DNA from: a bacterium
GTDB lineage: Bacteria > Patescibacteriota > Minisyncoccia > Phycocordibacterales > UBA6065
Length of the DNA: 64,000 bases
Direction of reading: 5' to 3'
Assembly (NCBI GenBank): GCA_030680695.1
Contig: JAUXUT010000149.1
Span: 469,768-533,767 of the forward strand
Part shown: positions 372 through 23,264 of the stretch, piece after piece
How the letters are laid out: the number at the start of each line of letters is the position of its first letter
Numbering within the stretch: the first letter of the stretch is position 1
The notes under the pieces: model-generated
What the model was told of the DNA's origin: nothing
Database searches by the model: none
What the model saw: only the letters and a program-made list of their open reading frames with translations
Made by a program: the position numbers and the translations under genes

Positions 372-2150
372 TTAATTCCCCAAGTCGAGCAGTTTTTTTA
401 ATACATCTTCCGGTACTTCTTTCTGTCCCCCGCTCTCCACCTTAGTCTCTGGCTTTGGTTTATTGACGGATTCTTGAGGTGGACGTTTCGGGGCTTCTGC
501 AGGTTTCGGTTGGTTGGTCGGTGGCTTGATAACCGAAAGATTTGCGAGTGCGGCACGTAAGTCCTGTTTACTTTCTTCGGTCACACCCTTTCTTTCTGGC
601 TTGTGTTGTGGTGGTCGCTGATACGCCTGCGGCTTTAAATCTTTGAGCGACTGAAATCCGTCCGTTGGGTCCAACGGTGGTACTGGTCGATCTGGTTTTT
701 CCGGTCTAGGAACCTGTTGTGGTCTTGGTGCTTGTTGTGGCTGTGGTCGTGGTGCTTGATATGTGACTGGCGCAACCTTTGGGCGAGCCTGTTTAGTGTT
801 GTAAGGGGCGGATGCTGGTGCCGAAGCTTGTGTTGGAGCTGATGGTCCGTCAACAGCTGCGTCACCGAGCACCTGTCGGCGTATATCTTCCTCTACCTTG
901 GAACGCAATTGACCGTAATTTGCGCGCGATGCTTGCAACGCCTGTTCCCTATACGATATTGCTGGCAACGGCACAGGTGGAAGTCCGACAGCTGAAAACG
1001 GCTGCGACCCCACCCCATCAATCATGAGCCTTAAATACATCTGATACTTACCCAAGTTCACAATATCGTCGGCTGTAAACTGTGGCGCAAATTCTTTCTC
1101 GAACTGCTCAGCATCGATCGAGCCCACGCGGAACACAATCATGGTGCCAACGTTTCCGAATACGGCGGCACGTACTTCTTCCGACATCTGCTCGACATAT
1201 TGGTGAGCGATAGTGAGATTGAGCTTGTATTTGCGGGCCTCCGACAAAATATCGGCAAACGATTCGTTGGCAAACGATTGGAACTCGTCCACAAAGAGAT
1301 AGAAATTTGGAAGCGACTTCATCTGCTTCTCGGAAACATCTGCACGGGACATTGCTCCGAGGTAAATCTTCGTAATGAACATTGCACCGAGCAAGTTCGC
1401 GTTCGACTCACCCACACGGCCTTTGGATAGGTTGACGATGATGATCTTCCTCTCGTCCATCATTTTCCTGATGTCGAAAGATGACTTCGGCTGACCGATA
1501 ATGTTTCGAATGAGCGGATTGTTGGTGAACTGACCAATCTTGTTTTGGATAGCCGGCGTTGCCTCGGCGGCAAATTTTTCGGTGTATTTTGCAAATTCAT
1601 CAACCCAGAAAGACTTCACCGCCGGGTCTGTGACGTTATCGACGACTTTCTTGCGGTATTCCTTGTCGGCGTACATCTTGTTCACGCCAAGGAGCGTTGC
1701 GCCTGGATATTCAAGAAGCGCAAGCAAGGTATTCGAAAGTATGTATTCCATGCGGGCAGACCAGGCGTCGACCCAGATTTTCTTGAACGTCGACATAAGG
1801 CCAGATACGACGAGGTGGCGTTTGTCGTATCCCACGTCTTCCATGACATTAAAGGCGATTGGATGTTCGACGTCGAACGGTGCAAAGTACACAACGTCCT
1901 TGAGGCGGCTCTCAGGGATATAGTTAAGCAATAGCTCGGCCGTCTTACCGTGCGGATCAATGAAACAAAGCCCTTCCCCACCTTGGATGTCCTGAATGGC
2001 CATGACTTCAAGTAGGTTGGACTTTCCCATGCCCGTCTTTCCGATGACGTACATGTGGCGAGTTCGGTCCTCGGCCTTGATGCCGAACTTCACGCGTTTG
2101 TTGCGCGCATCCGTCTCGGCGAAATATGTAATCTTGTCGTCGCTCGTCAT
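372..2150 (-). CDS. VirD4/TraG-family (type IV coupling protein-like) P-loop ATPase with Pro/Gln-rich disordered C-terminal tail
   Basis: 592 aa ORF; Walker A VIGKTGMGKS, Walker B YLFVDEF, conserved TIAHQY block; C-terminal ~150 aa of PxP/PQ repeats; ATG at 2150. Confidence 0.6.
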   Translation of the reverse strand: MTSDDKITYFAETDARNKRVKFGIKAEDRTRHMYVIGKTGMGKSNLLEVMAIQDIQGGEGLCFIDPHGKTAELLLNYIPESRLKDVVYFAPFDVEHPIAFNVMEDVGYDKRHLVVSGLMSTFKKIWVDAWSARMEYILSNTLLALLEYPGATLLGVNKMYADKEYRKKVVDNVTDPAVKSFWVDEFAKYTEKFAAEATPAIQNKIGQFTNNPLIRNIIGQPKSSFDIRKMMDERKIIIVNLSKGRVGESNANLLGAMFITKIYLGAMSRADVSEKQMKSLPNFYLFVDEFQSFANESFADILSEARKYKLNLTIAHQYVEQMSEEVRAAVFGNVGTMIVFRVGSIDAEQFEKEFAPQFTADDIVNLGKYQMYLRLMIDGVGSQPFSAVGLPPVPLPAISYREQALQASRANYGQLRSKVEEDIRRQVLGDAAVDGPSAPTQASAPASAPYNTKQARPKVAPVTYQAPRPQPQQAPRPQQVPRPEKPDRPVPPLDPTDGFQSLKDLKPQAYQRPPQHKPERKGVTEESKQDLRAALANLSVIKPPTNQPKPAEAPKRPPQESVNKPKPETKVESGGQKEVPEDVLKKLLDLGN

Positions 2151-3269: not shown

Positions 3270-4547
3270 TTACTGCCCGTCTGTCAAAAGAGCGGCGCGG
3301 GTATACCTGTTCCCTGCATTCCACAACAGCCATGAGTCGAGACCCGTATCATATGTGGCCTGAATCTGGGCTCGCACCATTTCGGCGGTGTATGGAACAG
3401 GATAGTTGTTATCCTGAAGCCATGGTCGCAATTTCTTGGGATCGAAAGATGGCTTGGCATACAGTGCAGGCGTCGAAGTGCCGATTCGGGCATCTGGAAA
3501 CACGACAGTGGTCGTCGTGGCGATTGTACGAGCCACAGCTTTGTCCATGGAAACCTTAATCACCTGATAAACATTCTTGTTGGGGTCGCCGAGATTATAA
3601 AAATTGTTCGGATAATGCGACGGGTATACCATTGGCGATATGTAGTCGAAATAAGGCAATGCATATTCGAGAACCTGACCGATGTTGAGGTCATCCGTAT
3701 TCGTAGTTGTCATGCCGAAAAGGTCGGCTGATATGACTATGCCTTCAGGCGAAAGTTTTTCGTGCAAGTACGAGAAAAATTCGCGCATGATTTCAGCCTT
3801 TGGGTTTGTGCCGCTCCATGGATACCAAATATCTTTCATGTTCCCGTCAGATGGGAATCGGATGTAGTCGAATTGAATCTCGTCGACACCTATTGCGTGT
3901 GTTTCGCGAGCAAGCATCACCATATAATCCCAATAAGGCTTAGCTGATGCATCGATCCAGGGAATACCCTTGTGGTCACGCCAGACAGTCGTGGTCGAGG
4001 TTTGGGTTTTTACCGCCCATTCCGGTTTTTCCTTGACCATGAATGTGTCCTGAAACACGGCGAGACGCGCAATGACATATATTCCCTTCGCGTGCAGTTC
4101 ATCGATAAAATCTTGCATGTCTTTTACGAAACATCCTCCACCCTCTGCAGGTTGGAGTATATCCGCGCCAGTATCAAACGTTATGCGGCCGTCATACGAC
4201 TTAACGTCAATGACGATTGTGTTTAGTTCTGTCTCGTCGACGAGCTTAACCAGATTGTCGCGCAAAGACTTCGAACCGGCGACGCAAGATGTCATGTATA
4301 TGCCACGGACGGCATCTGGCGTCGCCACATATGTAGCTTTACGGCCCTCTGGTTCCGACGCCTCGACAACATCAATCTGCGCGGCGCTTGATGTGCCCAT
4401 TCCATTCGCCTCATATCGCATATCAGAATGCGATGGTATTCCGATATAAAGCCCGACGAAAGCGAATACAAAGACAGTGACAAGGCCAGCGCCAGTGCGA
4501 TAAGCCTTGACGCTCTGTCTGTTCATCTTCGTCCCATCATCTGCCAT
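3270..4547 (-). CDS. putative glycoside hydrolase-like TIM-barrel protein (DUF4015 family), membrane anchored
   Basis: Motifs NTIVIDVKSYDG, GIYVIARLAVFQD, GVDEIQFDYIRFPSDG typical of DUF4015; N-terminal TM; start taken at MADDG ATG overlapping upstream stop (TAATG). Confidence 0.65.
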   Translation of the reverse strand: MADDGTKMNRQSVKAYRTGAGLVTVFVFAFVGLYIGIPSHSDMRYEANGMGTSSAAQIDVVEASEPEGRKATYVATPDAVRGIYMTSCVAGSKSLRDNLVKLVDETELNTIVIDVKSYDGRITFDTGADILQPAEGGGCFVKDMQDFIDELHAKGIYVIARLAVFQDTFMVKEKPEWAVKTQTSTTTVWRDHKGIPWIDASAKPYWDYMVMLARETHAIGVDEIQFDYIRFPSDGNMKDIWYPWSGTNPKAEIMREFFSYLHEKLSPEGIVISADLFGMTTTNTDDLNIGQVLEYALPYFDYISPMVYPSHYPNNFYNLGDPNKNVYQVIKVSMDKAVARTIATTTTVVFPDARIGTSTPALYAKPSFDPKKLRPWLQDNNYPVPYTAEMVRAQIQATYDTGLDSWLLWNAGNRYTRAALLTDGQ

Positions 4548-4705
4548 TAGGAGCGCGCCTTTCCGGCGAGATATGCGAGGGTCGCCACTGCGACTGCCGA
4601 CGCGATGATAAGTACCTGCTTCCAAGACTGCGGTATGCCGAGAAGTGGAGTCGACGCGATGATCACAATAAAGCTCAAAGCGATGATGGTGTTTCTGTAT
4701 CTCAT
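4547..4705 (-). CDS. small 2-TM membrane protein (52 aa), translationally coupled to downstream hydrolase-like gene
   Basis: Hand translation: MRYRNTIIALSFIVIIASTPLLGIPQSWKQVLIIASAVAVATLAYLAGKARS*; stop TAA overlaps next ATG (TAATG); below 60-aa track cutoff. Confidence 0.3.
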   Translation of the reverse strand: MRYRNTIIALSFIVIIASTPLLGIPQSWKQVLIIASAVAVATLAYLAGKARS

Positions 4706-5426: not shown

Positions 5427-6614
5427 ATGACTATACGGCTCAGAAAACCCCTTGTCTATGTGACGCGGGACATCGAACGAGCACTCGGCCGCGAGCCGAA
5501 GGATGGTTATTTCGTTATATCAAACGACACACCTTACGGTCGCATGGTGCGCGAACGATATCCAGACAACGTTTGGCTCGTCGGACCAGATCCTTCGGGC
5601 GAGCAATTCGACACGTATGGCCTCCTTTCCCTTCCGTCGGTCGCGCAGGCCATACTCGAACGCGGTGCAGATGTGCTCGTGTTCCAGAACACAGCGCGCA
5701 TCGAACGCCTTGCGTCGGAACGAGGATGGAATCTTCTTAATCCGAGTGCGGCGCTCGCGAAAGAAATCGAAGAAAAGGTTTCGCAAATCGCCTGGCTCGA
5801 AAAAGATGCGGAACTCCTGCCACCACACCGCATCGCGAAAATGAAAGATGTGGTATTTGAAGGTAAACGATTCGTGCTTCAATTCAACCACTCGCATACT
5901 GGCGAAGGCACACATGTGATTGAGTCGGCTGATGCGCTGTCGGCGCTCGCTGTAAAGTTCCCGGAACGTGAATGTCGTGTCGTTGAATTCGTTGATGGCC
6001 CTGTGCTCACCGTGAATGTTGTTTCTGGATCCTGGCCGATTATCGGATCAATCAGCTATCAGATCACCGGCATAGCACCGTTCACTGACCTTCCCTTCTC
6101 GACTATCGGTAACGACTGGTCGCTCGCCGCATCGGCGGAATTTACAAATAAAGACCGTGCAACAATAAGGTCAATGGCGAGAAAAATTGGCCGACGCATG
6201 CATCGATCAGGATGGAAAGGTCTTTTCGGCATCGACGTTGTAAAAGATTCAACAACAGGCAAGATACACCTTCTTGAAATAAATGCTCGTCAACCCGCCT
6301 CTACCGCTTTCGAGTCACAGCTCCAGACGAAGACCACGATATTCGATGCCCATATCGCGGCACTGCTCGGTCGCTCGTGGAAAATCTGGCGCCTTTCCCC
6401 ATTGAAAGGCGGCTCGCAAATAGTTAAGCGCAAAACAGAAAAGACTCATACCGTTGATACCAAAGCGCTCGAATCCAAAGGTCTCGCCGTAATAAAATAT
6501 GAGGCCGGCCCACATAACAAAGAACTGTTCCGTATACAGTCAAATGAGGGTGTTATAGCAGGCCATGGTAGGCTTAATGCCCTAGGTAACTTCATAGCAT
6601 CATGCATCCGATAG
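5427..6614 (+). CDS. ATP-grasp superfamily ligase
   Basis: 395 aa; K-x-Gly-rich loop (KRFVLQFNHSHTGEGTHV), E-x-hydrophobic-x-G (RVVEFVDGPVL), GLFGIDVV...HLLEINARQ Mg/ATP motif. Confidence 0.6.
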   Translation: MTIRLRKPLVYVTRDIERALGREPKDGYFVISNDTPYGRMVRERYPDNVWLVGPDPSGEQFDTYGLLSLPSVAQAILERGADVLVFQNTARIERLASERGWNLLNPSAALAKEIEEKVSQIAWLEKDAELLPPHRIAKMKDVVFEGKRFVLQFNHSHTGEGTHVIESADALSALAVKFPERECRVVEFVDGPVLTVNVVSGSWPIIGSISYQITGIAPFTDLPFSTIGNDWSLAASAEFTNKDRATIRSMARKIGRRMHRSGWKGLFGIDVVKDSTTGKIHLLEINARQPASTAFESQLQTKTTIFDAHIAALLGRSWKIWRLSPLKGGSQIVKRKTEKTHTVDTKALESKGLAVIKYEAGPHNKELFRIQSNEGVIAGHGRLNALGNFIASCIR

Positions 6615-7396
6615 GAACAGAAGCATTGGGACCAGGAGCACGAACGGTTATAGACCGGTATCTTTCTCTGCCTATTGGTGCGAAACCATCGTGCCCATAT
6701 TTCAATAATCGACGCAGAAACTCGCGTGGCGGACTTCGTGCGCTCAAGGGAAAAGGCTCGCCAGAAGAAATAGCGGAAGAAGCAGAGATACGAGCACTCC
6801 AGACCCGCGTCGCCATCAAAGACTTGTCCACCGACAAACTTAAAGAGTTCCTTGTCGACCAGGATCTCGGCGTCGACTGCTCTGGTTTCGCATATCACGT
6901 ACTCGGAGCGGCACTTTTCGAAAAGAACGGCAAGTACCTCGGCCGCACCTTGCGATTCAAGCGTTCAGGATTCGCGGCGAGCCTCATCACTCGCCTCCGC
7001 CCAGCCGAAAATGCTGGCGTATCTGCATTCCGTCTCGACGAGAACAGCGTCGAAATTCCCGTCGCTGATGTACGGCCTGGTGATTTCATTACGTTCATAG
7101 GTACTGGCAAAGACAAATCGTATAACCATATCGTCGTCATCACTGGTGTAGATCGGGCAACTGGTGACAAAGAAGATGCGAGCGACATGCGTCTTTCATA
7201 CGCGCATTCATACGCGTGGCCGACAGACGGTGTTTATGGCCATGGTGTACGCGAGGGCGACATACTTGTTAAGGGCGGCGACCTTCTTGGTGGAACATGG
7301 AAGGAACGTGGTGCTGTTGGCAACGAAAACTTCACCTACACGAGTGCCTGTGACGCGCAAGAACTCACCCTCCGTCGCCTGCGGTCAATGATTTAG
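6602..7396 (+). CDS. papain-fold (NlpC/P60- or CHAP-type) cysteine peptidase-like protein, overlaps ATP-grasp gene by 13 nt
   Basis: VDCSGFAYHVLG nucleophile-Cys motif followed by NHIVVITG His motif; 264 aa. Confidence 0.45.
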   Translation: MHPIGTEALGPGARTVIDRYLSLPIGAKPSCPYFNNRRRNSRGGLRALKGKGSPEEIAEEAEIRALQTRVAIKDLSTDKLKEFLVDQDLGVDCSGFAYHVLGAALFEKNGKYLGRTLRFKRSGFAASLITRLRPAENAGVSAFRLDENSVEIPVADVRPGDFITFIGTGKDKSYNHIVVITGVDRATGDKEDASDMRLSYAHSYAWPTDGVYGHGVREGDILVKGGDLLGGTWKERGAVGNENFTYTSACDAQELTLRRLRSMI

Positions 7397-7460
7397 GACT
7401 AACCCGGACTGCGTGCATGTCGCTTTCCAAGAAACCTGTTTCGGCTATACTTGGTCGTAT

Positions 7461-8573
7461 ATGACCGATCTGAGCACGACCGTCGTAGGATACGCCATAC
7501 TTTCCTGCCTTGTGAGCCTCGCCTGGGCACCATTGCTCATAGGTACTTTGCGCCGCTTCAAGGTAACGCGTAACAACAAATACGACTTGGCGCTCGCCAT
7601 GGAATCGAACCATCACAAGGCGAACACCCCGATCATGGGCGGACTTCTCGTCATCGTAACTGTTGCCCTGCTCACGTACTTTTTCAACTGGGACCGCCGA
7701 TACACATGGGTGCCAATGGGTGTGATGTTGCTCTCTGCTCTGCTCGGTGGCACAGACGACCTTCTCAATGTATTCGGAAAGGAACGACGGCAACGAACCT
7801 TGTCACAGACAATGACGCTCATCCGTGTGCACAAGAGCATTTTTGTGCGAGCATGGCACCTCATAACTTTGCCGTGGACATGGCTTAAACGAGCGACGAC
7901 AATCTTTGGATCAAAGCAGAGGCGTGGCGTACTCGTACACGAGAAACTCATTCTGCAGTTCCTCGCAGGAGCCATCGCCGCATGGTGGATATATTGGAAG
8001 CTTGGCGCGTCATGGCAAGAACTCTATGTGCCGTTCATTGGTCTCGTCGACATTGGGATTCTCATCGTGCCACTCATCATATTAGTCGTGATGTTTACAG
8101 CGAACGCGGTGAACGTTTCTGACGGCATGGATGGATTGGCCGGCGGAATGCTTATTCCAACTTTCGGGGCATTGTCGTTCCTCGCGGCGCACGGCGGATA
8201 TTCCGAGCTTGCGATACTGAACGCTGTCACAGCAGGGTCACTCGTCGCATATACGTATTTCAATGTAAAACCTGCACGTTTCCAAATGGGCGATGTTGGG
8301 TCGCTCGGCCTTGGCGGATTACTCGCCATAAATGCCTTGGTGACGAATAGCATGGCGATTCTGCCTTTCATCGCCTTCGTGTTCTATGCAGAAGCGGCGA
8401 GCGTCATAATCCAAGCTGTCGGCCGCCACGTCTTTGGGCGCCGCGTATTTCGCATGGCGCCGCTTCATCATCATTTGGAATTGTCGGGTTGGAGCGAGGA
8501 AAAAACCATAATGCGCCTGTGGGTTATACATCTTGCGGCGGTGCTCGTTGGATTGTGGATAGGATTGCACTAA
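7461..8573 (+). CDS. mraY: phospho-N-acetylmuramoyl-pentapeptide transferase MraY
   Basis: MGGLLVIV, DDLLNVFGK, FTANAVNVSDGMDGLAGG, HHHLE motifs; start taken at MTDLS (track ORF from 7413). Confidence 0.85.
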   Translation: MTDLSTTVVGYAILSCLVSLAWAPLLIGTLRRFKVTRNNKYDLALAMESNHHKANTPIMGGLLVIVTVALLTYFFNWDRRYTWVPMGVMLLSALLGGTDDLLNVFGKERRQRTLSQTMTLIRVHKSIFVRAWHLITLPWTWLKRATTIFGSKQRRGVLVHEKLILQFLAGAIAAWWIYWKLGASWQELYVPFIGLVDIGILIVPLIILVVMFTANAVNVSDGMDGLAGGMLIPTFGALSFLAAHGGYSELAILNAVTAGSLVAYTYFNVKPARFQMGDVGSLGLGGLLAINALVTNSMAILPFIAFVFYAEAASVIIQAVGRHVFGRRVFRMAPLHHHLELSGWSEEKTIMRLWVIHLAAVLVGLWIGLH

Positions 8574-8574
8574 A

Positions 8575-9225
8575 ATGGCATACCTCAACTGGGACACAAA
8601 AGTTATAACGGACTTCTCGCCCGAAAACGTCGCCGCGATGTATGACGCCGGGTATGTCCTTACTCGCGTCGACAAAGGCGTCATGAACAAGACGCGATCA
8701 TATCGTGTAGACCTTTCGGCCTACGAGGCGTCGAGCGAAAACCGCCGCATCATGCGCAAATCAGAGCATATCGCCCTCCGCAGGGAATCTATTCCCTATA
8801 CCGCCTATGATTGGTCCATTGGAAAGCTCGCCAAAGATTTCTATGACAAGTTGGGCGCGGATTTTTCCGCAAACAAAGTAAAAGAAATTATGACCGAGAG
8901 CGAGAAAAGCAGTTTCAATACCCTGCTCGTCTTCACTGGGCCGCGGGGCGACGTCGGCTTTGTCGTTTGTTATGAGTCGCGCGACATACTTCATTATTCA
9001 TATCCGTTTTACGTCGAGGATCCAGCCGAACCATCGCGCGGACTCGGCATGATGACCAAAGCCGTCGAATGGGCCAAGGAAAACGGCAAGCGATACTTAT
9101 ATCTCGGCTCGCTCCAACGTCCATCGGATACATACAAATTACAGTTCCGTGGTGGTGAGTGGTTTGATGGTGAGAAGTGGCAGATTGATACCGAGCCCTT
9201 GAAAAACATTTTGAAAGGTATATAA
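8575..9225 (+). CDS. aminoacyl-tRNA-protein transferase-like protein (ATE_C/Bpt-like GNAT-fold domain)
   Basis: SYRVDLSAYEASSENRRIMRK and YLYLGSLQRPSDTYKLQFRGGEWFDGE resemble Bpt/ATE1 C-domain motifs (RVDv..F..SrsqRRvlrr; YvYLGYwi...YKarFrP.E); starts 1 nt after mraY stop. Confidence 0.5.
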   Translation: MAYLNWDTKVITDFSPENVAAMYDAGYVLTRVDKGVMNKTRSYRVDLSAYEASSENRRIMRKSEHIALRRESIPYTAYDWSIGKLAKDFYDKLGADFSANKVKEIMTESEKSSFNTLLVFTGPRGDVGFVVCYESRDILHYSYPFYVEDPAEPSRGLGMMTKAVEWAKENGKRYLYLGSLQRPSDTYKLQFRGGEWFDGEKWQIDTEPLKNILKGI

Positions 9226-9271
9226 TATCGCCACAAGTGCCTTTGGCTCGCCCTCGAAAGAGGGAGAACAG

Positions 9272-9307
9272 AAAAAGCCGTCAGAATAAATCTCTGACGG
9301 CTTTTTG
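9272..9307. terminator. bidirectional intrinsic terminator
   Basis: aaaaagccgtcaga-ataaatc-tctgacggctttttg; overlaps last codons of the MazF-like ORF. Confidence 0.6.
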
Positions 9308-9667
9308 TATTGGCTCAAACCTCTCACGACCAATGAAACAGACGCGCTCGATAAGCCGCCTGGTGTCGATAACACGAATCTGAGAGAGTAAAGCAGAGGC
9401 CTCTTTGCCCTTTACAAGTCCAAGGGGAATCCGCATTGGATGTATCTTTACTGATGAGGTGAGCGGCAGAACGATGCACGTGGAACGACTTAAACCTTTT
9501 ACGATCAAAACTGGCCTGTTAAATCCCTCACCTGTACCGTCCTGCTCGAAACCTATGTTCACACCAAGGTGGCACCACCACACCTCTTGCGCGCGATAGA
9601 CAAGATGTCTGGCTTTGACATCAAGCTCTTTCTTGCATACATTCCATGTATCGAAATCCTTTCTCAC
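9281..9667 (-). CDS. PemK/MazF-family endoribonuclease toxin-like protein (GTG start)
   Basis: EVWWCHLGVNIGFEQDGTGEGFNRPVLIV and TCIVLPLTSS..P.RIPLG match MazF/PemK core motifs; no adjacent antitoxin ORF. Confidence 0.55.
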   Translation of the reverse strand: MRKDFDTWNVCKKELDVKARHLVYRAQEVWWCHLGVNIGFEQDGTGEGFNRPVLIVKGLSRSTCIVLPLTSSVKIHPMRIPLGLVKGKEASALLSQIRVIDTRRLIERVCFIGRERFEPIQKAVRDLF

Positions 9668-9722
9668 ATCGAGAGGATATCAGTGTGATATCGGTATAAC
9701 CACAAAAAGTTATAAAATATTT

Positions 9723-10145
9723 ATGAAAATCTCCCTCGTCACAGTTGGAAAAACAGACGGCGCAGAACTACGCGACGCGATCAACGAATATGAAAAGCGC
9801 CTTTCTCGATATATCCCGTTTGAAATCATCGAAACGACGGACGAAAAACTCGCCAAAGTCCTCGACCGATATGACCGCGTCTTCCTCCTCGACGACAAAG
9901 GCAAGGAATACTCGTCTATGGAATTCTCGTCATTCATAGACAAACAAATGACGACTGGGCTGCAATCTGTAGCTTTTGTTGTTGGTGGTCCATTCGGATT
10001 CACGGACGATGTGCGAGCGATGGCAGACGGCCTCATTTCCCTCTCGCGCATGACCTTCACCCATCAATTCGTACGCGCTGTATTTTTGGAGCAGTTGTAT
10101 CGGGCGTTCACAATTTTGCGAAACGAGAGGTATCATCACGAGTAA
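9723..10145 (+). CDS. rlmH: 23S rRNA (pseudouridine1915-N3)-methyltransferase RlmH
   Basis: MKISLVTVGK...FLLDDKGKEYSS...VAFVVGGPFGFTDDVR SPOUT motifs. Confidence 0.85.
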   Translation: MKISLVTVGKTDGAELRDAINEYEKRLSRYIPFEIIETTDEKLAKVLDRYDRVFLLDDKGKEYSSMEFSSFIDKQMTTGLQSVAFVVGGPFGFTDDVRAMADGLISLSRMTFTHQFVRAVFLEQLYRAFTILRNERYHHE

Positions 10146-10146
10146 A

Positions 10147-10180
10147 AACAAATAAAAAGCCGCGCCTTGTGCGGTGCGGA
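10147..10180 (-). terminator. minus-strand-oriented hairpin terminator directly downstream of orphan promoter
   Basis: plus aaaaacaaataaaaag-ccgcgcc-ttgt-gcggtgcgg; U-run only on minus strand. Confidence 0.45.
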
Positions 10181-10202
10181 AACCCAAAGCATTATCTATA
10201 TA

Positions 10203-10231
10203 TTATACACCCAATAAACTCAAAAGTCAAT
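10203..10231 (-). promoter_or_regulatory. near-consensus sigma70-type promoter (TTGACT-N17-TATAAT) firing leftward, member of repeated promoter family
   Basis: revcomp reads GGTATTGACTtttgagtttattgggTGTATAATATA; same extended motif at 45025-45053, 14905-14932, 20078-20105. Confidence 0.45.
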
Positions 10232-10275
10232 ACCTATCAAAGGCCGTGAAAATGGCTTAAAATAGGGCTCACATC

Positions 10276-11736
10276 ATGACAGCCTCCCTAAACCCATCTC
10301 AGAAGTCCCAAAAAGTCCACTTCATCGGCATTTGCGGCGTCGCAATGTCGGCCGTCGCTACAGCCCTGTGGCAGAAGGGATACAAGGTCACAGGGAGCGA
10401 CAGCGGCTTCTTCCCTCCTGTATCAACACACTTGTCGAATCTCGGCATCTCGTATTACCCTGGCTTCCATCCAGAAAAAATGATCGCGGCCCACGGTGAC
10501 GGACAAGAAAGTGGCGCGCCTGATTTCGTTGTGGTCGGCAACGCCATGGCAAGCAAAAATCCCGAAGTTGAATATGCACGCGAACACGGTATCGTCATCA
10601 AGTCATATCCCGAGGCCGTTGGTGAATTTTTGGTAAAGCCACACTCGATCGTCTGCACCGGCACATACGGAAAGACCACGACATCTGCCCTGCTCGCACA
10701 TATTTTGAAACATGCGAATCTGAAACCTTCGTATCTTATCGGCGGAGTGACGCAAGACGGATCGCCATCGGCCGCGATTGATTCGGGCGAATGGTCGGTG
10801 TGCGAGGGCGACGAGTACACCACAGCAAAATGGGACAAGCGCGCCAAGTTTATGCACTACAGGCCGACGCACCTTTTGATGACTGCAGTGAAATGGGATC
10901 ACGCCGATGTGTATCCGACCGAACAATCGTACTTTGACGCCTTTAAAGACCTCATCGCCCTTGTCCCAAAGTCTGACAATCCACACGACGGGCTTGTCCT
11001 CGCCTGCATAGATACCGAAACACTTCCTTCAATGCTTGCCGATGCGGGGCGCAATTATATTTCATACGGAAAAGACGAAAAAGCAGATTACCGATACGAG
11101 AACGTGCGCGAGAGCAAGGACGGCATATTGTTTGACATCGTCTATCATGGCAAAACGTACGGCATCGAATCCCCTCTCCTGGGTGCCTACAACGCAGAAA
11201 ATGTCACCGGATGTTTTGCTATGGCCAAGGAGATCGGCATCGCCCCGTCCGACATCACTGACGCCATCAAATCGTTCCGCGGTATGAAACGCCGTCTGGA
11301 AAAACGATACGAGAATCATGTGACGGTAATTGATGACATCGCCCACTCGCCAGAAAAAGCCAAGTCCGTGCTTAAAACATTGCGCGGAATATATCGCGGA
11401 ACGATCACCGCCGTATACGAGCCGAATTCCGGCAACCGCACACCACAATCTAAACCAGCCTACGCCGAGGCGTTTAAAGGTGCCGACCGCGTGGTCATCC
11501 CTCGCCTGTCGAAATTGAAGGTGGACGCCGCAAATCCCGAGAAAACATTTGAAGGAGACGAGCTCGCCGCAACCATCGCCCTCACCCATCCAAACGTCCA
11601 ATACATCGAAGACGATGCGGCCCTCGTTGAATCTGTCACCGCAAACTGCAAAGACGGCGATGTTATTGTTTTCCTCGGCTCGCATGGTTTTCGTGGGATG
11701 ATTGAAGAAACGGTCGAGAAGGTCGCAAGGTTATAA
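10276..11736 (+). CDS. Mur ligase family protein (UDP-N-acetylmuramate--L-alanine ligase MurC / murein peptide ligase Mpl-like)
   Basis: 486 aa; HFIGICGVAMSAVA...GSDSG N-terminus, TGTYGKTTTSALLAH P-loop, VIDDIAHSP. Confidence 0.8.
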   Translation: MTASLNPSQKSQKVHFIGICGVAMSAVATALWQKGYKVTGSDSGFFPPVSTHLSNLGISYYPGFHPEKMIAAHGDGQESGAPDFVVVGNAMASKNPEVEYAREHGIVIKSYPEAVGEFLVKPHSIVCTGTYGKTTTSALLAHILKHANLKPSYLIGGVTQDGSPSAAIDSGEWSVCEGDEYTTAKWDKRAKFMHYRPTHLLMTAVKWDHADVYPTEQSYFDAFKDLIALVPKSDNPHDGLVLACIDTETLPSMLADAGRNYISYGKDEKADYRYENVRESKDGILFDIVYHGKTYGIESPLLGAYNAENVTGCFAMAKEIGIAPSDITDAIKSFRGMKRRLEKRYENHVTVIDDIAHSPEKAKSVLKTLRGIYRGTITAVYEPNSGNRTPQSKPAYAEAFKGADRVVIPRLSKLKVDAANPEKTFEGDELAATIALTHPNVQYIEDDAALVESVTANCKDGDVIVFLGSHGFRGMIEETVEKVARL

Positions 11737-11747
11737 AGAAATTATAA

Positions 11748-11778
11748 AGAAAAGCCCCTCCGCGAGGAGGGGCTTTGA
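11748..11778. terminator. bidirectional intrinsic terminator
   Basis: aaagcccctcc-gcga-ggaggggcttt. Confidence 0.55.
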
Positions 11779-11820
11779 ACGAGCGCGCGAAGCGCTCGGT
11801 TAACTATTCGTCCTTTACCT

Positions 11821-12666
11821 TCATCCTTTCCAGTGGACGAAGACCAGATTCCTGGACTTGTCCCCGCGTCGGTGTGAATGCCAGGCGGGTGTGCCGTCGG
11901 GCAAACGGTCGGCGAAGGTGTCGTGCCGATCGCTCGAAACATGGGCCTTTGAGACTCCGAGATTTGAGAGCTGGGCCTCGACAACCCTGAAGACGTCCAT
12001 GCGCCCGAGCTCGAGCGGTCCAGGGAAACAGTGGAATCCCAGGACGTTCGAAACACGATGCACCATCTGCAGATTGCGACCCCCATGGGTCGGGTGGTCA
12101 AACCGATGCTCAAAGCTTTCGGGCCCGATACCCAAGGCGAGGAACGCCTGGATATGGGACCGATACTCCGACGTGGGGTGAAGATACCTGACCATGTTGC
12201 CAACCAATCCGCGCAGGAGCGAATCCCGCGAGGCGTGGCCGACAACTGCCTTGCGCACCCATGATGACCACAAAACGAGCGTCGGGCAATCGGCGCTCGC
12301 GATAGCGACCGCGGAACGAGGCCCGATGGCCACAGCATCCGCAGATACACCGTCACGCACGATGACTGACCCAAACTCACGAGCACCAAACCGATACGGG
12401 CTGGCGACAAGTCCGTTGCACTTGGAAACGCTCGGCAGGAAAAGTTCCCGCACACCGCGATCCGCCGCATAACTGACTGCAGCCAGCATGTTCTCGGCGG
12501 TAATTCCCTTCCAATCCCGTCCAGTGCCTTCGAGGCAAATCTGGAGCGAATCGTTCAGAGGAAACGGCGTAATGATAATGCTGTTTGTATTCACTGTGTC
12601 TCCCCGGCGACGGGGCGTTTGTCTTTCGACTTGTTTTGGTATGTTCATAAAAAACTCCTTGGTCAT
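11821..12666 (-). CDS. PgeF/YfiH-family (DUF152, laccase-domain) peptidoglycan editing factor-like protein
   Basis: AVAIASADCPTLVL (ADCvPvl), AVVGHASRDSLLRGL (aaHAGWRG-like), LGIGPESFE, WHSHRRGDKSRN (SyRRd..tGR) motifs; first ATG at 12666 (track ORF begins at TTG 12693); lies in ~65-70% GC block. Confidence 0.6.
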   Translation of the reverse strand: MTKEFFMNIPKQVERQTPRRRGDTVNTNSIIITPFPLNDSLQICLEGTGRDWKGITAENMLAAVSYAADRGVRELFLPSVSKCNGLVASPYRFGAREFGSVIVRDGVSADAVAIGPRSAVAIASADCPTLVLWSSWVRKAVVGHASRDSLLRGLVGNMVRYLHPTSEYRSHIQAFLALGIGPESFEHRFDHPTHGGRNLQMVHRVSNVLGFHCFPGPLELGRMDVFRVVEAQLSNLGVSKAHVSSDRHDTFADRLPDGTPAWHSHRRGDKSRNLVFVHWKG

Positions 12667-12731
12667 ATAACCACAGGAGCTTTCATAGGGCAAGGAAAAG
12701 GCTGGATTGAGAGATGGACTGGATCCGTGGT

Positions 12732-12938: not shown

Positions 12939-13838
12939 ATGATCACGCCTCAAACTGAACACCCAGATATCGCTGCTGCCCTCGGCGTACCTCGTCTTTA
13001 CCTCAAACGAGAAGACTTGCACCCGTACGGCTCGCATAAAGGCCGATCCATACCGACCATGATTGATATCAAGGCGGCTGATGGCCGTAAGGAGTTTGCT
13101 ATATCATCGTCCGGCAACGCTGCACTCGCGGCAATCCGTCACATTGTCCACAAAAACAGCGGTCTCAAAGAAGAAGAAGATCGCCTCTCGCTCTCGATTA
13201 TTGTTGGTGAGCGTATAGACACCGACAAGGAGCAAATTCTGATTGTTGAGGCGAAAAACGCAGGCGAGACATCGGCCGGCCGCATATCTATATCGCAATC
13301 CCCTCGCCCCCTCAAAGCCCTCTTCGATCTCATTAAGGGCAATCGCCACGACAGCCTGCGCCAATCCGTTGATGACAACGCCCTCATCGGATACGAATCA
13401 CTTGCGGCCGAACTTGCTCGGACACCTGAACTTGCAGCTGTTTTCATACCGACGTCCTCGGGTACTGCGGCTCAGGCCATCGCAGAATTCTTTGTAGCGA
13501 ACAAAAAACCTTCGGCGGTGCACATCGTCCAAACAACATCCTGCCATCCAATTGTGAATGGTTTCGATCGTGCCGATTCATCAGAAACTTCGATGGCTGA
13601 TGCTATAGTCGACAAAGTTGCCTATCGTCGTGCCAAACTTGTTGAAGTTATAAAAAAGACCGCCGGATCGGGCTGGATTGCTACCAACACAGAAATCGCC
13701 CGTGCCCAAGACCTTTTACGAGCCTCAGGTGTCGAAACTACCGCGAACGGCGCATTGGGCCTCGCAGGACTTATCCGAGCCTGTGCCAAAGGTGCGACCT
13801 TCACCGGATCAGTAGTGTGCGTTATCACCGGCAAATAA
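12939..13838 (+). CDS. fold-type II PLP-dependent enzyme (tryptophan synthase beta superfamily; ACC-deaminase/D-cysteine desulfhydrase-like)
   Basis: LYLKREDLHPYGSHKGRS lysine motif near N-terminus, Gly-rich SSGNAALAAI, 299 aa. Confidence 0.6.
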   Translation: MITPQTEHPDIAAALGVPRLYLKREDLHPYGSHKGRSIPTMIDIKAADGRKEFAISSSGNAALAAIRHIVHKNSGLKEEEDRLSLSIIVGERIDTDKEQILIVEAKNAGETSAGRISISQSPRPLKALFDLIKGNRHDSLRQSVDDNALIGYESLAAELARTPELAAVFIPTSSGTAAQAIAEFFVANKKPSAVHIVQTTSCHPIVNGFDRADSSETSMADAIVDKVAYRRAKLVEVIKKTAGSGWIATNTEIARAQDLLRASGVETTANGALGLAGLIRACAKGATFTGSVVCVITGK

Positions 13839-13878: not shown

Positions 13879-13907
13879 AAAAAGCCCCTCCGAAAAGGGG
13901 CTTTTGA
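13879..13907. terminator. bidirectional intrinsic terminator
   Basis: aaaagcccctccgaaaaggggcttttg. Confidence 0.55.
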
Positions 13908-14248
13908 AATTTTTGCGAATGCCTACTAGGCGGCGCGGCGCGTGATAAGAGCAATTGATGGCATACGGCGCGGCGCGGGCGCCGGGCCTCCGTGATGGGA
14001 CTTGGGCGGTGTGCCTGGGATTTTTTCCGCCAATTGAACCTCGGGCGGGATATGCCGATGCGCCTCGCGGCGATCTGCGGGGTTTCCAAGATCGGGACCA
14101 CTCATCTGACCGTTCCATTTACGGTGCATAGCTGTAGGGTACTCTGATGGCGACGATCATTCGTCATAAGCGGTGGGAGTGCTGCCCCATGCCTACTTGT
14201 GCCATTTGAATATATATTGCTCCGCGTTATGAAAAAAGTCAAAGTAAA

Positions 14249-14283
14249 AACAAATAAAAAGGAGGCCCTCCATAGGGCCTCCT
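14249..14283 (-). terminator. intrinsic terminator for minus-strand gene 14297-14812
   Basis: plus aaataaaaa-ggaggccct-ccat-agggcctcc. Confidence 0.5.
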
Positions 14284-14296
14284 GATAACTTGTTGT

Positions 14297-14812
14297 TCAG
14301 CTCGCGCGCGACTTGGAGGCCTGGGCCTCGTCCATCGCTTGGCCGAGCTGCGCCATCGGGTCCGACGCCTTCGAACGCTGGGCCGGGAACGGCACCATCG
14401 ATCCGATCTTCGGCGTGCGGCGCGGTTTCGGGGTCTGGCCGTGCGTCGCCTTCACCGGGATTTTCGGTTGGATATTCACGGACTTGGCCTCGTCGTATTC
14501 GGCGAGGGCCTTGTCCCACGAGGCCAACGAGCACCAGCGGAATGCCTGGGCCATCTTCTCGCCCGGGCGCTGACCCGCGACGAACGCCACCAGCAACTCG
14601 CTGGTCGGGAGTCTGGGATTTTCCAGGCTCTCGAACACCGGTCGGCCAGTGTTGGCGTTGGGGTCGAACACTGCACGGCAGGCATCTTGGACACGGAAGT
14701 AAACCCGGTCCCCATGCTCGCTGGCGATCGTTCCGGTGCCATGTCGTTGGTCGACCATGACAACCAGTCCAAACTCCACCCGTGCCGATACTTGGGATTT
14801 CTTTGATTTCAT
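14297..14812 (-). CDS. cold-shock-domain-like protein with basic disordered C-terminal tail
   Basis: GLVVMVDQRHGTGTIASEHGDRVYFRVQDA resembles CSD core (GxVKWFN..KGFGFI...DVFVH); chosen over overlapping frames in high-GC region; own promoter and terminator. Confidence 0.4.
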   Translation of the reverse strand: MKSKKSQVSARVEFGLVVMVDQRHGTGTIASEHGDRVYFRVQDACRAVFDPNANTGRPVFESLENPRLPTSELLVAFVAGQRPGEKMAQAFRWCSLASWDKALAEYDEAKSVNIQPKIPVKATHGQTPKPRRTPKIGSMVPFPAQRSKASDPMAQLGQAMDEAQASKSRAS

Positions 14813-14904
14813 GAGGTAAGGAGCAACAATACAATGATGAGCGACTGAGTAACCCAGTCTTAAGGAATCGGCCCCTAGGCCTCTCCCATAGCTCTTTACC
14901 CTCT

Positions 14905-17186: not shown

Positions 17187-17211
17187 ATAAATAATATTAA
17201 CCCGTAATTTG

Positions 17212-17284
17212 TGCGCGTACTAGGATTTGAACCTAGGACCCCATCAGTATCAGTGATGTGCTCTACCAACTGAGCTATACGCGC
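17212..17284 (-). tRNA. tRNA-Ile (anticodon GAU)
   Basis: GCGCGTATAGCTCAGTTGGTAGAGCACATCACTGATACTGATGGGGTCCTAGGTTCAAATCCTAGTACGCGCA folds as cloverleaf: 7-bp acceptor, GCTC/GAGC D-stem, CATCA/TGATG anticodon stem, loop CUGAUAC, TPsiC loop UUCAAAU; CCA not encoded. Confidence 0.9.
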
Positions 17285-17352
17285 ATATGTTTTGGACCTG
17301 TCTATATGTCCCTGAGCCTCGAAAATATAGCAAAAACTAGTGCTTTCGGCAA

Positions 17353-17379
17353 TGAAAAGCCCCTGCATGTGCAGGGGCT
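17353..17379 (-). terminator. intrinsic terminator after small ORFs, upstream of tRNA-Ile
   Basis: plus gaaaa-gcccctgca-tg-tgcaggggc; U-run on minus strand. Confidence 0.5.
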
Positions 17380-17431
17380 CGTGCGACAGTGCTGGCTGTG
17401 CGGGTGGCGGTCGAGTAACGTCACCTGACGG

Positions 17432-17587
17432 TTACTTGACCGTAAAGACACCGAATTGATAAAGGAGCACGGTCGCGATGGCGAGAATCACGATGAGACT
17501 CGCCACGAGTGGCATAACAGGCTGTCCCGCGTCGGGGCGGCCCTTGTGCCACGGGTGGGGCGGTTGGACTGGGCTACGGTTGTGCAT
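17432..17587 (-). CDS. small single-TM protein (51 aa)
   Basis: Hand translation MHNRSPVQPPHPWHKGRPDAGQPVMPLVASLIVILAIATVLLYQFGVFTVK*; between 83-aa ORF and terminator; below track cutoff. Confidence 0.3.
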   Translation of the reverse strand: MHNRSPVQPPHPWHKGRPDAGQPVMPLVASLIVILAIATVLLYQFGVFTVK

Positions 17588-17686
17588 GGCAAGGTGTTTT
17601 CTCTACTCTACCCTCGTATCAGAAAAAGTAAAGGCGCCGGGCTGTGAAGCGGCGGCGCCATTTGGTTTGGAGAAATTTACCAGTGT

Positions 17687-17938
17687 TTACCGGTACGTGA
17701 CGGTGGGGGCATTCTCCAGCTGCTCTGCTTGCAGCTTGCTCTCCACCTCGATCTTCTGCTCCCTGCGGTCCTCTCGTTGGAACGCATATTCTAGGAGTAG
17801 AAAACCGACGACTGAAACCGCGATCCACAACGCTCCGATGGCAATGTGGCGCAGGATAGGGCGGACCGAGAACAGGGGTTTGTTTATCACCCGTTCGTAG
17901 TCCGATTTGAACGGTCCGACTGGGGTCGAGGTTCTCAT
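17687..17938 (-). CDS. small single-TM membrane protein (83 aa) with own consensus promoter, leaderless-type start
   Basis: ORF MRTSTPVGPFKSDYERVINKPLFSVRPILRHIAIGALWIAVSVVGFLLLEY...; ATG 9 nt after TATAAT. Confidence 0.45.
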   Translation of the reverse strand: MRTSTPVGPFKSDYERVINKPLFSVRPILRHIAIGALWIAVSVVGFLLLEYAFQREDRREQKIEVESKLQAEQLENAPTVTYR

Positions 17939-17947
17939 TTGTATCTA

Positions 17948-17975
17948 ATTATATCAAATTGACAGGATTTGTCAA
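17948..17975 (-). promoter_or_regulatory. consensus sigma70 promoter TTGACA-N16-TATAAT
   Basis: revcomp CATACTTGACAaatcctgtcaatttgaTATAATtagatacaaATG. Confidence 0.5.
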
Positions 17976-18004
17976 GTATGTCGAAACAACCCTACCCCAG
18001 ACAG

Positions 18005-18034
18005 CAAAAAACCGCTCTGTTGAGCGGTTTTTTG
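18005..18034. terminator. bidirectional intrinsic terminator immediately downstream of 16S rRNA
   Basis: caaaaaaccgctc-tgttg-agcggtttttt. Confidence 0.55.
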
Positions 18035-18175
18035 GAGGCCATATCGCATTCTATTTTGCCTCGTTCTTTTCGCCAGTTCTTCCCTGGCTTCCATGCAATT
18101 TAAGGTGTTTGCAAAACCCATATTAAATATGATCGACTCCGTAAGTTCCCTACCGAAGTAGGAGAACGGTTTTCA

Positions 18176-19680
<1,505 letters not shown>

Positions 19681-20077
19681 AACCGAGAAGATAGTCACTG
19701 CGCCGAAGCGCCGAGACTTTCCCCTCGATCGAACGAGACAAAACAGACCGCGATATGTTGCCACATCGTTTTCTATCTTGTTGGACTTCCCGTGCTTTCG
19801 GGTCGTCGCAATCCTATTTATTTTTAGTTGGGGTCGAAACTGAATCTGAATCAACCTTGCAACATTCAACAAAAACTCAAAGTAAAATAGATTAAGATTT
19901 TGCACGAGTTAAGAGAAACATCAGAAATAAATCTGACCAGTTTTTGCTAACACGTTCTTAAGTATTACTTCTATTTCAACGATCGGCCCCTAAAGCCCTC
20001 TGTCCTGAGAAAGAAAAATGGTCATCTTGCGAAGCCCATTTCCCTGCCCAAAACCGAGTTTTAAAGGGGTAAGGACT

Positions 20078-20105
20078 ATTATACACATCGGTTGAGGCTG
20101 GTCAA
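20078..20105 (-). promoter_or_regulatory. candidate 16S rRNA promoter TTGACC-N16-TATAAT
   Basis: revcomp GGGCTTGACCagcctcaaccgatgtgTATAATAG, ~390 nt upstream of 16S 5' end, same family as other promoters. Confidence 0.4.
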
Positions 20106-20639
20106 GCCCTTTAGTGCTCTGTTATATGGGGGCCCGGTCACAGGTCAGACGCTCGCCTTGGCAGTGTTTTTATGTGCTGTGGGCAGAAGCATACCACGCT
20201 TGAACTATTCGATGCCATCCTGGATAACCTTGAAAATATGAGGAAATGGAACAATGAGATGGCTATATTCATGGCTCAGGCCCGAAAGGAACCCATAATG
20301 CGCGTATTGCTGTAGGGTGTTAGTATTGCAGCATGGCAAAGAAAGACAACTTTACGGATGTGGTCCAGAATCTCCCAAAGACGCCACCTGCTCCGGCTCC
20401 AAAGCAGCCAGCACCACAGCAGGTTTCAGGGTCTAACGGTGAGGTGATCACGCTCGGACACAATCAGAAAAAATAGGCGAAATTGCGTCTTTTGCAGACT
20501 CCGAATGACTCCGAAAAAATGGGGGTATCGGAGTTTTGCTTTATATAGGGGAGATGGCTTGAACTATATGTGATATGGGATATGGACCTCTTTAATCAAA
20601 AATAGATTCGGAGTGTTTTTAAATTGACTCAAATTGGTT

Positions 20640-20705
20640 GAAATAGAGCGAAATAGAGCGAATTAGAGTGAAAATTTGGGTGATTTAGGGCGAAATAGGG
20701 TGACC
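20640..20705 (+). repeat. short tandem direct repeats GAAATAGAGCG x2 plus degenerate copies (GAATTAGAGTG, GCGAAATAGGGTG)
   Basis: gaaatagagcgaaatagagcgaattagagtgaaaatttgggtgatttagggcgaaatagggtga at left edge of low-GC island. Confidence 0.4.
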
Positions 20706-20744
20706 TAAACGAGCTATTTAGCAGTTTCTATCGGAAATGATAGA

Positions 20745-21188: not shown

Positions 21189-21242
21189 TTGGTTTAGATA
21201 GGACGGTTTGCGTTCTTTTACTTATCTATTTTCCAATTAAAA

Positions 21243-21974: not shown

Positions 21975-21978
21975 TACA

Positions 21979-22503: not shown

Positions 22504-22518
22504 AATGAAAAAAATAAA

Positions 22519-22935: not shown

Positions 22936-22962
22936 TTATTGTATATCTGCGCGCCTGGACAC

Positions 22963-22981: not shown

Positions 22982-22991
22982 TGATTACCCC

Positions 22992-23261: not shown

Positions 23262-23264
23262 TCT

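Follow-up and report, generated by a model that had tools for sequence, protein, structure and literature searches.

A family of predicted aminoacyl-tRNA-dependent transferases is linked to the genes of peptidoglycan precursor synthesis in the Patescibacteria. We describe it from a protein of 216 amino acids (aa) encoded in a stretch of 64,000 nucleotides (nt) from a member of the Patescibacteriota lineage UBA6065 (GenBank assembly GCA_030680695.1, contig JAUXUT010000149.1, positions 469,768 to 533,767 of the forward strand; hereafter the window). The best explanation of the findings is that this protein founds a family that descends from the ATE/Bpt transferases, dropped their Zn-binding N-terminal part and was taken over for the synthesis of peptidoglycan precursors. 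For its role there we tentatively favor, at slightly less than an even chance, a Fem-analogous, tRNA-dependent aminoacyl transfer onto the precursor, coupled to MraY and to a Mur ligase. Genome and metagenome scans found the family in at least 220 GTDB species and at no fewer than 581 metagenome loci, and an exhaustive profile search gave 361 clusters at 50% identity. An earlier annotation of the same DNA (the original prediction) had read the surrounding genes as a possible tRNA-dependent route for modifying or editing the precursor peptide.

Sequence and fold of the predicted transferase

The Pfam family ATE_C matches the 216-aa protein with an E-value of 8.5e-4 (20.4 bits, cut-off 25) in an alignment that reaches position 119 of 122, and the NCBIfam bacterial arginyltransferase model matches residues 38-203 (E 7e-11). 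The NCBIfam model, 247 positions long, aligns only from position 76 onward; the protein lacks the Zn-Cys ATE_N part and has no cysteine among its N-terminal 60 residues. The best arginyltransferase model reaches 42 bits against a cut-off of 170. Because it lacks the ATE_N part and scores below all curated cut-offs, the protein is, judging by its sequence, a shortened ATE/Bpt homolog, a relative rather than a member of that group. Public annotations name its homologs “GNAT family N-acetyltransferase” (NCBI), arginyltransferase (JGI, in many cases) or “hypothetical protein”, and the NCBI relatives are named Paceibacterota or Patescibacteria. NCBI has the identical protein as well, from a metagenome-assembled genome, on a contig of 649 kb.

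An AlphaFold2 model of the protein (pLDDT 92), compared with the PDB by Foldseek, retrieves human ATE1 as the top match (E 3e-8, TMq 0.70), followed by alanyl- and lysyl-phosphatidylglycerol synthases (aminoacyl-phosphatidylglycerol synthases, aaPGS/MprF; E about 2e-7 and TM-scores of 0.41-0.51 for their catalytic domains), Weissella FemX (TMq 0.50-0.57), yeast ATE1 and Sbb17/Sba18, peptide synthases that use aminoacyl-tRNA. The top 39 matches are all aminoacyl-tRNA transferases; proteins of other kinds first occur at ranks 40, 45 and 49 (an uncharacterized Staphylococcus protein and VipF, which binds CoA). The ATE/Bpt-type fold that had been proposed for the protein therefore stands, its nearest solved structures being aminoacyl-tRNA transferases and not ordinary acetyltransferases.

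Both motifs that the original prediction had quoted are present in the translation. The pair Y187-K188 is invariant in 26 close homologs (alignment A1, mean identity 67%, from a homolog search with 1465 matches) and in 34 diverse family members. Over the same 34 diverse members the basic helix SSENRRIMRK is conserved, with E55 and R58 invariant and S54, N56 and R57 nearly so. The ATE1 structure paper describes a positively charged helix and a Tyr/Phe-Lys pair (Tyr303-Lys304 in ATE1, with klAte1 K304 corresponding to FemX K305) as tRNA-binding and catalytic features common to ATE1, FemX and aaPGS (PMC9351520). We take Y187-K188 to be equivalent to the catalytic pair of ATE1 from the motif rather than from superposition, and the role of the lysine from that paper.

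Conserved neighborhood in the lineage of the window

A scan of one genome per GTDB species, in which the neighborhood was followed, gave 220 loci. We analyzed the best 80, at 50-71% identity and from Paceibacteria and Taylor-, Nomura- and Magasanikbacteria; the denominators below are the loci with enough sequence. An mraY gene lies directly upstream of the transferase gene in 70 of 70 loci, and a MurC/Mpl-type ligase gene lies downstream in 64 of 64. A pyridoxal phosphate (PLP) enzyme follows in 57/59 loci, and a pair of genes for an ATP-grasp ligase and an NlpC/P60-like enzyme precedes in 56/61. Since the arrangement recurs in about 80 species-level genomes, it is not due to chance. The protein did not model as an ordinary GNAT acetyltransferase without tRNA-binding features, nor was its predicted adjacency to mraY lost; indeed, within one division and cell wall (dcw) cluster the transferase and Mur ligase genes are even fused (see below).

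In the window itself, the open reading frames (ORFs) and the close spacing of the genes were as annotated before: the ATP-grasp and peptidase genes overlap by 13 nt, the peptidase ATG at 6602 lying within ...TGCATCCGATAG, and a spacer of 1 nt separates mraY from the 216-aa gene (TAA-A-ATG at 8571-8577). The MraY protein scores 178 bits with TIGR00445 (cut-off 192) and 88 bits with Glycos_transf_4, and has the HHH-loop motif PLHHHLE. Between the 216-aa gene and the Mur ligase gene lie a minus-strand PemK-type toxin gene and rlmH. Both are incidental to the cluster: rlmH is present in 11/59 loci, and a PemK match was found in one related locus alone. The toxin gene has no obvious antitoxin ORF beside it.

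The PgeF-like protein had been counted as part of the cluster. Its Pfam assignment holds (Cu-oxidase_4, 35.8 bits against a gathering score of 22.9), with TIGR00726 at 28.5 bits against a cut-off of 141, but the gene was detected downstream in only 2 of 59 loci and is not a conserved member. Conversely, all the genes listed earlier exist, but two conserved members, a LysW-like protein and the PLP enzyme, had been overlooked. The proposed route as a whole is partly supported: the ATE/Bpt-type fold, the invariant Tyr-Lys pair and the conserved peptidoglycan linkage hold, and would fit a tRNA-dependent modification of the precursor; a role in precursor editing found no support.

Distant relatives, a fusion and dcw clusters

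In a second lineage of the candidate phyla radiation (CPR), the gene set of the window recurs, reordered, among canonical cell-wall genes, in the order glyS...mraZ-rsmH-ftsL-pbp-murE-ATE_C-like-ligase-murB-murA-(ddl)-murF-mraY-NlpC/P60-like-LysW-like (minus strand)-PLP-ATP-grasp-ftsW. One protein of 645 aa (P0266) consists of an ATE_C-like domain fused to a MurC/Mpl-type ligase, and its gene likewise lies in a dcw cluster (mraZ-rsmH-ftsL-pbp-murE-[fusion]-murA-mraY). At another locus (L086), murE, the ATE_C-like gene and the ligase gene are separate and overlapping.

Other relatives have other partners. A non-CPR group (GC 56-59%, with aconitase and hybrid kinases nearby) carries alr immediately upstream in 26/37 loci, and in one lineage lysS lies directly downstream of the ATE_C-like gene. 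A LysW-like gene was considered beside this lysS-linked homolog and rejected, as the 62-aa ORF there encodes a membrane peptide and not a zinc ribbon. In a protein of 809 aa (P0240; L171:8001-10430), the ATE_C-like domain is joined by PPDK_N, which is of the ATP-grasp type, and by a swivel domain of the PEP-utilizers family; the context of its gene is uninformative save for a Mur ligase gene 4.4 kb away.

In the dcw-type lineage, glyS, the gene for a dimeric glycyl-tRNA synthetase, is regularly found 1-2 kb upstream of mraZ (eight loci: L083, L092, L095, L097, L099, L103, L104 and L116). This may be the common recO-glyS linkage, or may hint at a Gly-tRNA donor.

The partner ligase and other Mur enzymes

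All three Mur-ligase domains of the window ligase are matched by hidden Markov models (HMMs). The protein scores 284 bits with the murC model (cut-off 335) and 250 bits with the mpl model (cut-off 388.7), and in the PDB it matches Psychrobacter Mpl (3hn7) best, just ahead of Haemophilus MurC. Its segment EGDEYTTAKWDKRAKFMHY aligns without gaps to EADEYDSAFFDKRSKFVHY of Mpl, while HiMurC requires a gap of 7 residues. The motif (S/T)AFFDKRSK is found in Mpl and in no other Mur ligase (PMC3060825); the corresponding TAKWDKRAK of the window ligase agrees at 6 of 9 positions, gap-free against PaMpl. The insertion that goes with this motif follows the EADEY segment. An insertion of Mpl length is present in 92 of 92 ligases encoded next to ATE_C-like genes, and its sequence varies; this length is otherwise seen in Mpl alone. 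No second MurC-type gene was found in any locus examined.

The remaining enzymes of the cytoplasmic pathway accompany these genes. Canonical Ddl and Alr are present in the dcw-type clusters, MurE and MurF in the examined loci, and murB in loci of the Magasanikbacteria type; in 16 loci of the window lineage a MurD-like ligase gene lies just after the PLP gene (TIGR01087 the best model, 122-158 bits; the query was an E. coli MurD sequence, and the matches were confirmed with NCBIfam). Because Ddl, Alr, MurE, MurF and the MurD-like ligase co-occur with the extra genes, the latter should add a step and not replace these enzymes. Replacement of Ddl by the ATP-grasp ligase and of Alr by the PLP enzyme was considered and ruled out by the canonical Ddl and Alr in the same dcw-type clusters; replacement of MurD by the extra genes was ruled out by the MurD-like ligase in the 16 loci.

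The MurE encoded next to the ATE_C-like gene has 405-443 aa and lacks the N-terminal UDP-binding domain of about 70 residues (L083:6673-8004, L039:15132-16364, L103:8787-10004). One locus, L116, has both a full-length MurE of 495 aa and a short one (L116:6436-7923 vs L116:8739-10004). MurF in the dcw-type clusters is also N-terminally short (403 aa).

A putative amino-group-carrier module

Four further proteins accompany the transferase. The ATP-grasp identity of the ligase was upheld, with a match to Pfam ATP-grasp_3 over the gathering score (E 3.6e-5); its AlphaFold2 model (pLDDT 92.6) retrieves generic ATP-grasp enzymes from the PDB (TM 0.6-0.68). It has no RimK match and resembles PurK and biotin carboxylase. 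The call of a papain-fold peptidase for the NlpC/P60-like protein is upheld by Cys93 (GxDCSGF), His176 and His202, which are invariant in 20 orthologs and stand in canonical triad order, though not by the HMMs, NLPC_P60 and CHAP being sub-threshold (E 0.03-0.08; NlpC/P60 Pfam 14.6 vs 23) and Amidase_6 weak. The protein has a novel conserved N-terminal region, CPYFNNRR...GKGxPxEIxEE, and its gene adjoins mraY in three different gene arrangements. Family profiles of these two proteins found nothing significant among PDB sequences.

The LysW-like protein matches NCBIfam carrier_LysW_Arch (E 7.6e-5), and its family profile, compared with the PDB, ranks two LysW proteins highest, 5k2m_E (E 0.0023) and 3wwl_A. 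The four cysteines of its zinc ribbon (C5, C8, C28 and C31; CxxC...CxxC) are invariant, and its C-terminal tail, E-I/V-I/V-D-E-G-K, is invariant in the window lineage and reads ..EEEK in the dcw-type lineage. In the window lineage the ORF is found between the ligase and PLP genes, on the opposite strand, in nearly every related locus. Across L001-L082 and L094/L097/L099/L103/L149 it is always divergent from the PLP gene and conserved along with the ATP-grasp and NlpC/P60-like genes. The PLP enzyme matches Pfam PALP with 90 bits and, by PDB profile, threonine synthases (E 4e-16), dehydratases and a PLP Asp racemase (1.9e-8).

One lineage has all four genes in a row, and the window has them as two pairs; in the dcw-type lineage the ATP-grasp gene adjoins the PLP gene. 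Together they look like a carrier-protein module that loads, modifies and releases its cargo in the sense of LysW, and the set may be an amino-group-carrier-type module inside a cell-wall cluster. By analogy with Aslfm and its racemase, the ATP-grasp and PLP pair might more conventionally form a D-amino-acid side-chain module.

Predicted function and alternatives

The consistent joining of mraY and the MurC/Mpl-type ligase gene to the transferase and the carrier module predicts an undescribed tRNA-dependent step on the peptidoglycan peptide. The fold, the conserved Tyr-Lys pair, the conserved gene order, the fusion and the location within dcw clusters are observed; that tRNA is needed, and which acceptor and amino acid are used in which order, we infer. 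The transferase would take aminoacyl-tRNA from the normal translation pool, with L-Ala as the first guess because of the alr linkage and Gly and Lys as alternatives, and would pass the aminoacyl group, Fem-style, to an amine that is free in a muropeptide precursor, either UDP-MurNAc-peptide or lipid I/II. The product would be a branched or extended stem peptide, formed before or just after the MraY step, with the transferase working in physical or kinetic coupling with the ligase and MraY. The ATP-grasp, NlpC/P60-like, LysW-like and PLP module would probably make or tailor another amino-acid building block of the same peptide. There is precedent for both activities, as Fem enzymes (GNAT fold, aminoacyl-tRNA) and ATP-grasp enzymes build L- and D-amino-acid cross-bridges (PMC2922099).

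Several observations weigh against such a Fem-like transfer. The ATE_C match and all NCBIfam matches of the 216-aa protein fall below their curated cut-offs. The family profile retrieves from PDB sequences ordinary GNAT acetyltransferases alone, weakly (E 0.006), so that the assignment as a tRNA transferase depends on the fold, the motifs and the Bpt HMMs. No FemAB Pfam match was found at E <= 0.1, nor any FemAB sequence similarity, and the model shows a single GNAT core where Fem enzymes have a double domain. A search of the window and of 60 loci found no dedicated tRNA, and the cluster has no paralogous aminoacyl-tRNA synthetase. Finally, a fusion to the ligase is unexpected for a late, Fem-like step, and the Mpl-type signature of the ligase better fits an enzyme that is fed a preformed peptide.

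This last arrangement, a convergent or salvage route, is the main alternative, though clearly less probable: using Ala-tRNA, the ATE_C-like enzyme would attach L-Ala to the alpha-amino group either of free D-Glu or of a gamma-D-Glu-diamino-acid peptide, made by the adjacent truncated MurE or scavenged from a host, and the Mpl-type ligase would load the preformed peptide onto UDP-MurNAc. The NlpC/P60-like enzyme would trim scavenged peptides, much like LdcA in the recycling pathway of E. coli. Such a route accounts better than the Fem-analogous transfer for the fusion, the order of the genes and the Mpl signature (the insertion in all partner ligases, TAKWDKRAK, the PDB match): the fusion, and the order MurE-ATE_C-like-ligase with overlapping stop and start codons, suggest consecutive steps, and the adjacent MurE lacks its UDP-binding domain while L116 also has a full-length copy. 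Moreover, the acceptors of ATE1 and Bpt are N-terminal Glu and Asp (PMC9351520). Yet the MurD-like ligase beside the cluster in 16 loci has its N-terminal domain, implying the ordinary addition of D-Glu to UDP-MurNAc-L-Ala; MurF is short in the same clusters, so the truncation may be a habit of the lineage; and ATE1 has its acceptor pocket in ATE_N, a part that is largely missing from the 216-aa protein. In addition, the murC model outscores mpl for the window ligase and two others tested (an N-terminal fragment from L086 scores slightly higher for mpl), and no Mpl-type ligase adjoins the non-CPR, alr-linked members. A bolder version, which we consider quite unlikely taken as a whole, is that many Patescibacteria assemble part of the stem peptide off the nucleotide: MurE without its first domain would join the diamino acid to D-Glu, the transferase would add L-Ala from tRNA, and the Mpl-type ligase would load the whole en bloc onto UDP-MurNAc. 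The LysW-like carrier, with its C-terminal Lys, would supply a non-standard building block, the loading being done by the ATP-grasp ligase, the modification by the PLP enzyme and the release by the NlpC/P60-like enzyme. If true, the Mur pathway would here have a convergent variant that depends on both tRNA and a carrier protein.

The remaining alternatives place the 216-aa protein outside stem-peptide aminoacylation. Transfer to another acceptor, either a membrane lipid (as in aaPGS/MprF, which make Ala- or Lys-phosphatidylglycerol, or an undecaprenyl-linked lipid) or the C-terminal Lys of the LysW-like carrier, seems distinctly unlikely. The aaPGS catalytic domains are strong structural matches, the lysS adjacency recalls mycobacterial LysX, an aaPGS-LysRS fusion, the alr linkage fits alanine, and the LysW-like protein ends in an invariant acidic-x-Lys tail; however, the TM-scores to aaPGS lie below that of ATE1, the 216-aa protein has no membrane or flippase domain, its neighbors are Mur enzymes and not lipid-synthesis genes, and alr- and lysS-linked lineages have the ATE_C-like gene without a LysW-like gene. 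An acyl-CoA-dependent GNAT that acts without tRNA as an N-acetyl- or N-acyltransferase on a precursor or amino sugar is improbable. The PDB profile search described above, a weak match to Pfam Acetyltransf_6 and the NCBI name speak for it, whereas the Foldseek ranking, with other proteins only from rank 40, the invariant ATE-type Tyr-Lys pair and the conserved basic SSENRR helix speak against it. So does the acetyl-CoA P-loop, whose motif is Q/RxxGxG/A and which is not intact here (RGLGMM, read from the sequence). Very improbable, in our view, is an ordinary N-degron enzyme, a Bpt-like leucyl- or arginyl-tRNA-protein transferase that tags proteins with N-terminal Asp or Glu for Clp and lies near mraY by accident. 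The closest named families and many JGI labels are of this kind and ATE1 is the best structural match, but the family scores are far under the cut-offs, the Zn-Cys part is gone, the linkage to peptidoglycan genes is invariant in four independent arrangements, the fusion included, and neither clpS nor clpA was seen beside the ATE_C-like gene in any locus examined.

Other features of the window

The coordinates of the cluster are collected in Table 1. Upstream of it, at 3270-4625, lies a DUF4015 glycosyl-hydrolase-like gene that many related loci also keep upstream of rsmI, and a TraD/VirD4-like type IV coupling protein (372-2150, minus strand; NCBIfam SXT_TraD, E 1e-15) is encoded at the window edge. 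Downstream, several long ORFs, unassigned to any family, overlap on both strands at 14193-14834, between terminator-like hairpins at 13880-13905 and 14260-14283. A block of lower GC (about 17200-35650; 0.43-0.45 vs 0.49-0.54) lies between tRNA-Ile(GAU) (17211-17284) and tRNA-Leu(CAG) (35566-35648), ends with a large serine recombinase gene (33963-35615) and carries a heavy-metal P-type ATPase (23265-25559) and other metal/redox membrane proteins. It looks like an integrated island.

Table 1. Genes of the transferase cluster and its neighbors in the window
Feature	Position	Strand	Basis
ATP-grasp ligase, 395 aa, three-domain PurK/biotin-carboxylase-like	5427..6614	+	Pfam ATP-grasp_3, AlphaFold2 model, Foldseek
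Cytoplasmic NlpC/P60-like cysteine peptidase or amidase, 264 aa	6602..7396	+	Catalytic residues, weak Pfam
MraY (phospho-MurNAc-pentapeptide translocase)	7413..8573	+	TIGR00445, Glycos_transf_4, HHH-loop motif
ATE_C/Bpt-like predicted aminoacyl-tRNA-dependent transferase, 216 aa	8575..9225	+	HMMs, fold, motifs
PemK/MazF-type toxin gene, between ATE_C-like gene and rlmH	9281-9667	-	
MurC/Mpl-type UDP-MurNAc ligase, 486 aa, Mpl-type insertion (EGDEYTTAKWDKRAKFMHY)	10276..11736	+	HMMs, PDB match
PgeF/YfiH-family (DUF152) protein, neighbor, not a conserved member	11821..12693	-	Pfam Cu-oxidase_4
LysW-like zinc-ribbon protein, 54 aa	12732..12896	-	NCBIfam carrier_LysW_Arch, PDB profile matches
Fold-type II PLP enzyme, 299 aa, threonine-synthase / Ser-Thr dehydratase / Asp-Ser racemase-like	12939..13838	+	Pfam PALP

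Significance

The cytoplasmic Mur pathway, a major target of antibiotics, is considered all but invariant, and tRNA-dependent tailoring of peptidoglycan precursors is already known from Fem and MurM enzymes. Our literature searches found no papers that link ATE/Bpt-like proteins, LysW or murD to the cell walls of Patescibacteria; an ATE/Bpt-derived family wired to mraY, murE and an Mpl-type ligase across the Patescibacteria, with its predicted activity, was not found in the literature searched. The LysW-like module in a dcw cluster may be more novel than the transferase. A large uncultivated radiation keeps five uncharacterized genes in or beside its dcw cluster, for the transferase, the LysW-like protein, the ATP-grasp ligase, the cytoplasmic NlpC/P60-like enzyme and the PLP enzyme. 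They offer a functional hypothesis for proteins now carrying the three public labels given above, and make three questions testable: the peptidoglycan chemistry of the Patescibacteria, a second origin of tRNA-dependent cell-wall tailoring from the N-degron transferase lineage, and roles of amino-group carrier proteins beyond Lys and Arg biosynthesis.

Comparison with known systems

Bpt and ATE1 provide the best sequence families and the best structural match for the 216-aa protein and share its basic SxxxRR helix. The YYMGFY...YKGQY of ATE1 is paralleled by its C-terminal motif YLYLGS...YKLQF...EW. Unlike Bpt and ATE1, the 216-aa protein has no Zn-binding Cys motifs, is missing about 40 residues at the N-terminus, scores under the family cut-offs, and is encoded in a context of cell-wall synthesis and not of proteolysis. 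With FemX/FemABX and MurM/MurN it has in common a GNAT-type core, a catalytic Lys after an aromatic residue, linkage to peptidoglycan genes and, as a prediction, the use of aminoacyl-tRNA on an amine of the peptidoglycan precursor. Fem enzymes, however, have a pair of GNAT domains, in some cases with a coiled coil, whereas the 216-aa protein has one core and a small N-terminal subdomain, descends from the ATE/Bpt branch, and is linked to mraY, murE and a MurC-type ligase, even by fusion to the ligase.

The partner ligase resembles Mpl and MurC in its three Mur-ligase domains and, by homology, in UDP-MurNAc binding, and resembles Mpl in its specific insertion and in a Tyr after DE. It differs in scoring below both equivalog cut-offs. 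Mpl is a recycling enzyme of Gram-negative bacteria, whereas the partner ligase is encoded in biosynthetic (dcw) clusters of monoderm-like CPR bacteria.

The carrier module recalls the LysW/ArgW systems: in both, a zinc-ribbon protein of some 54 aa ends in an acidic tail and is conserved alongside an ATP-grasp ligase and a hydrolase. The tail of LysW is EDWGE, whereas that of the LysW-like protein ends in Lys (DEGK or EEEK) and not in Glu. Furthermore, the ATP-grasp ligase of the cluster is not of the RimK/LysX type, the hydrolase is NlpC/P60-like and not an M20 peptidase (LysK), the sole modifying enzyme is a PLP enzyme, and the context is a dcw cluster. The D-aspartate ligase Aslfm of Enterococcus faecium and its aspartate racemase likewise pair an ATP-grasp ligase with an amino-acid-converting enzyme (PMC2922099); here, in contrast, the partner is a fold-type II PLP enzyme, and the cluster adds a carrier-like protein and a cysteine hydrolase.

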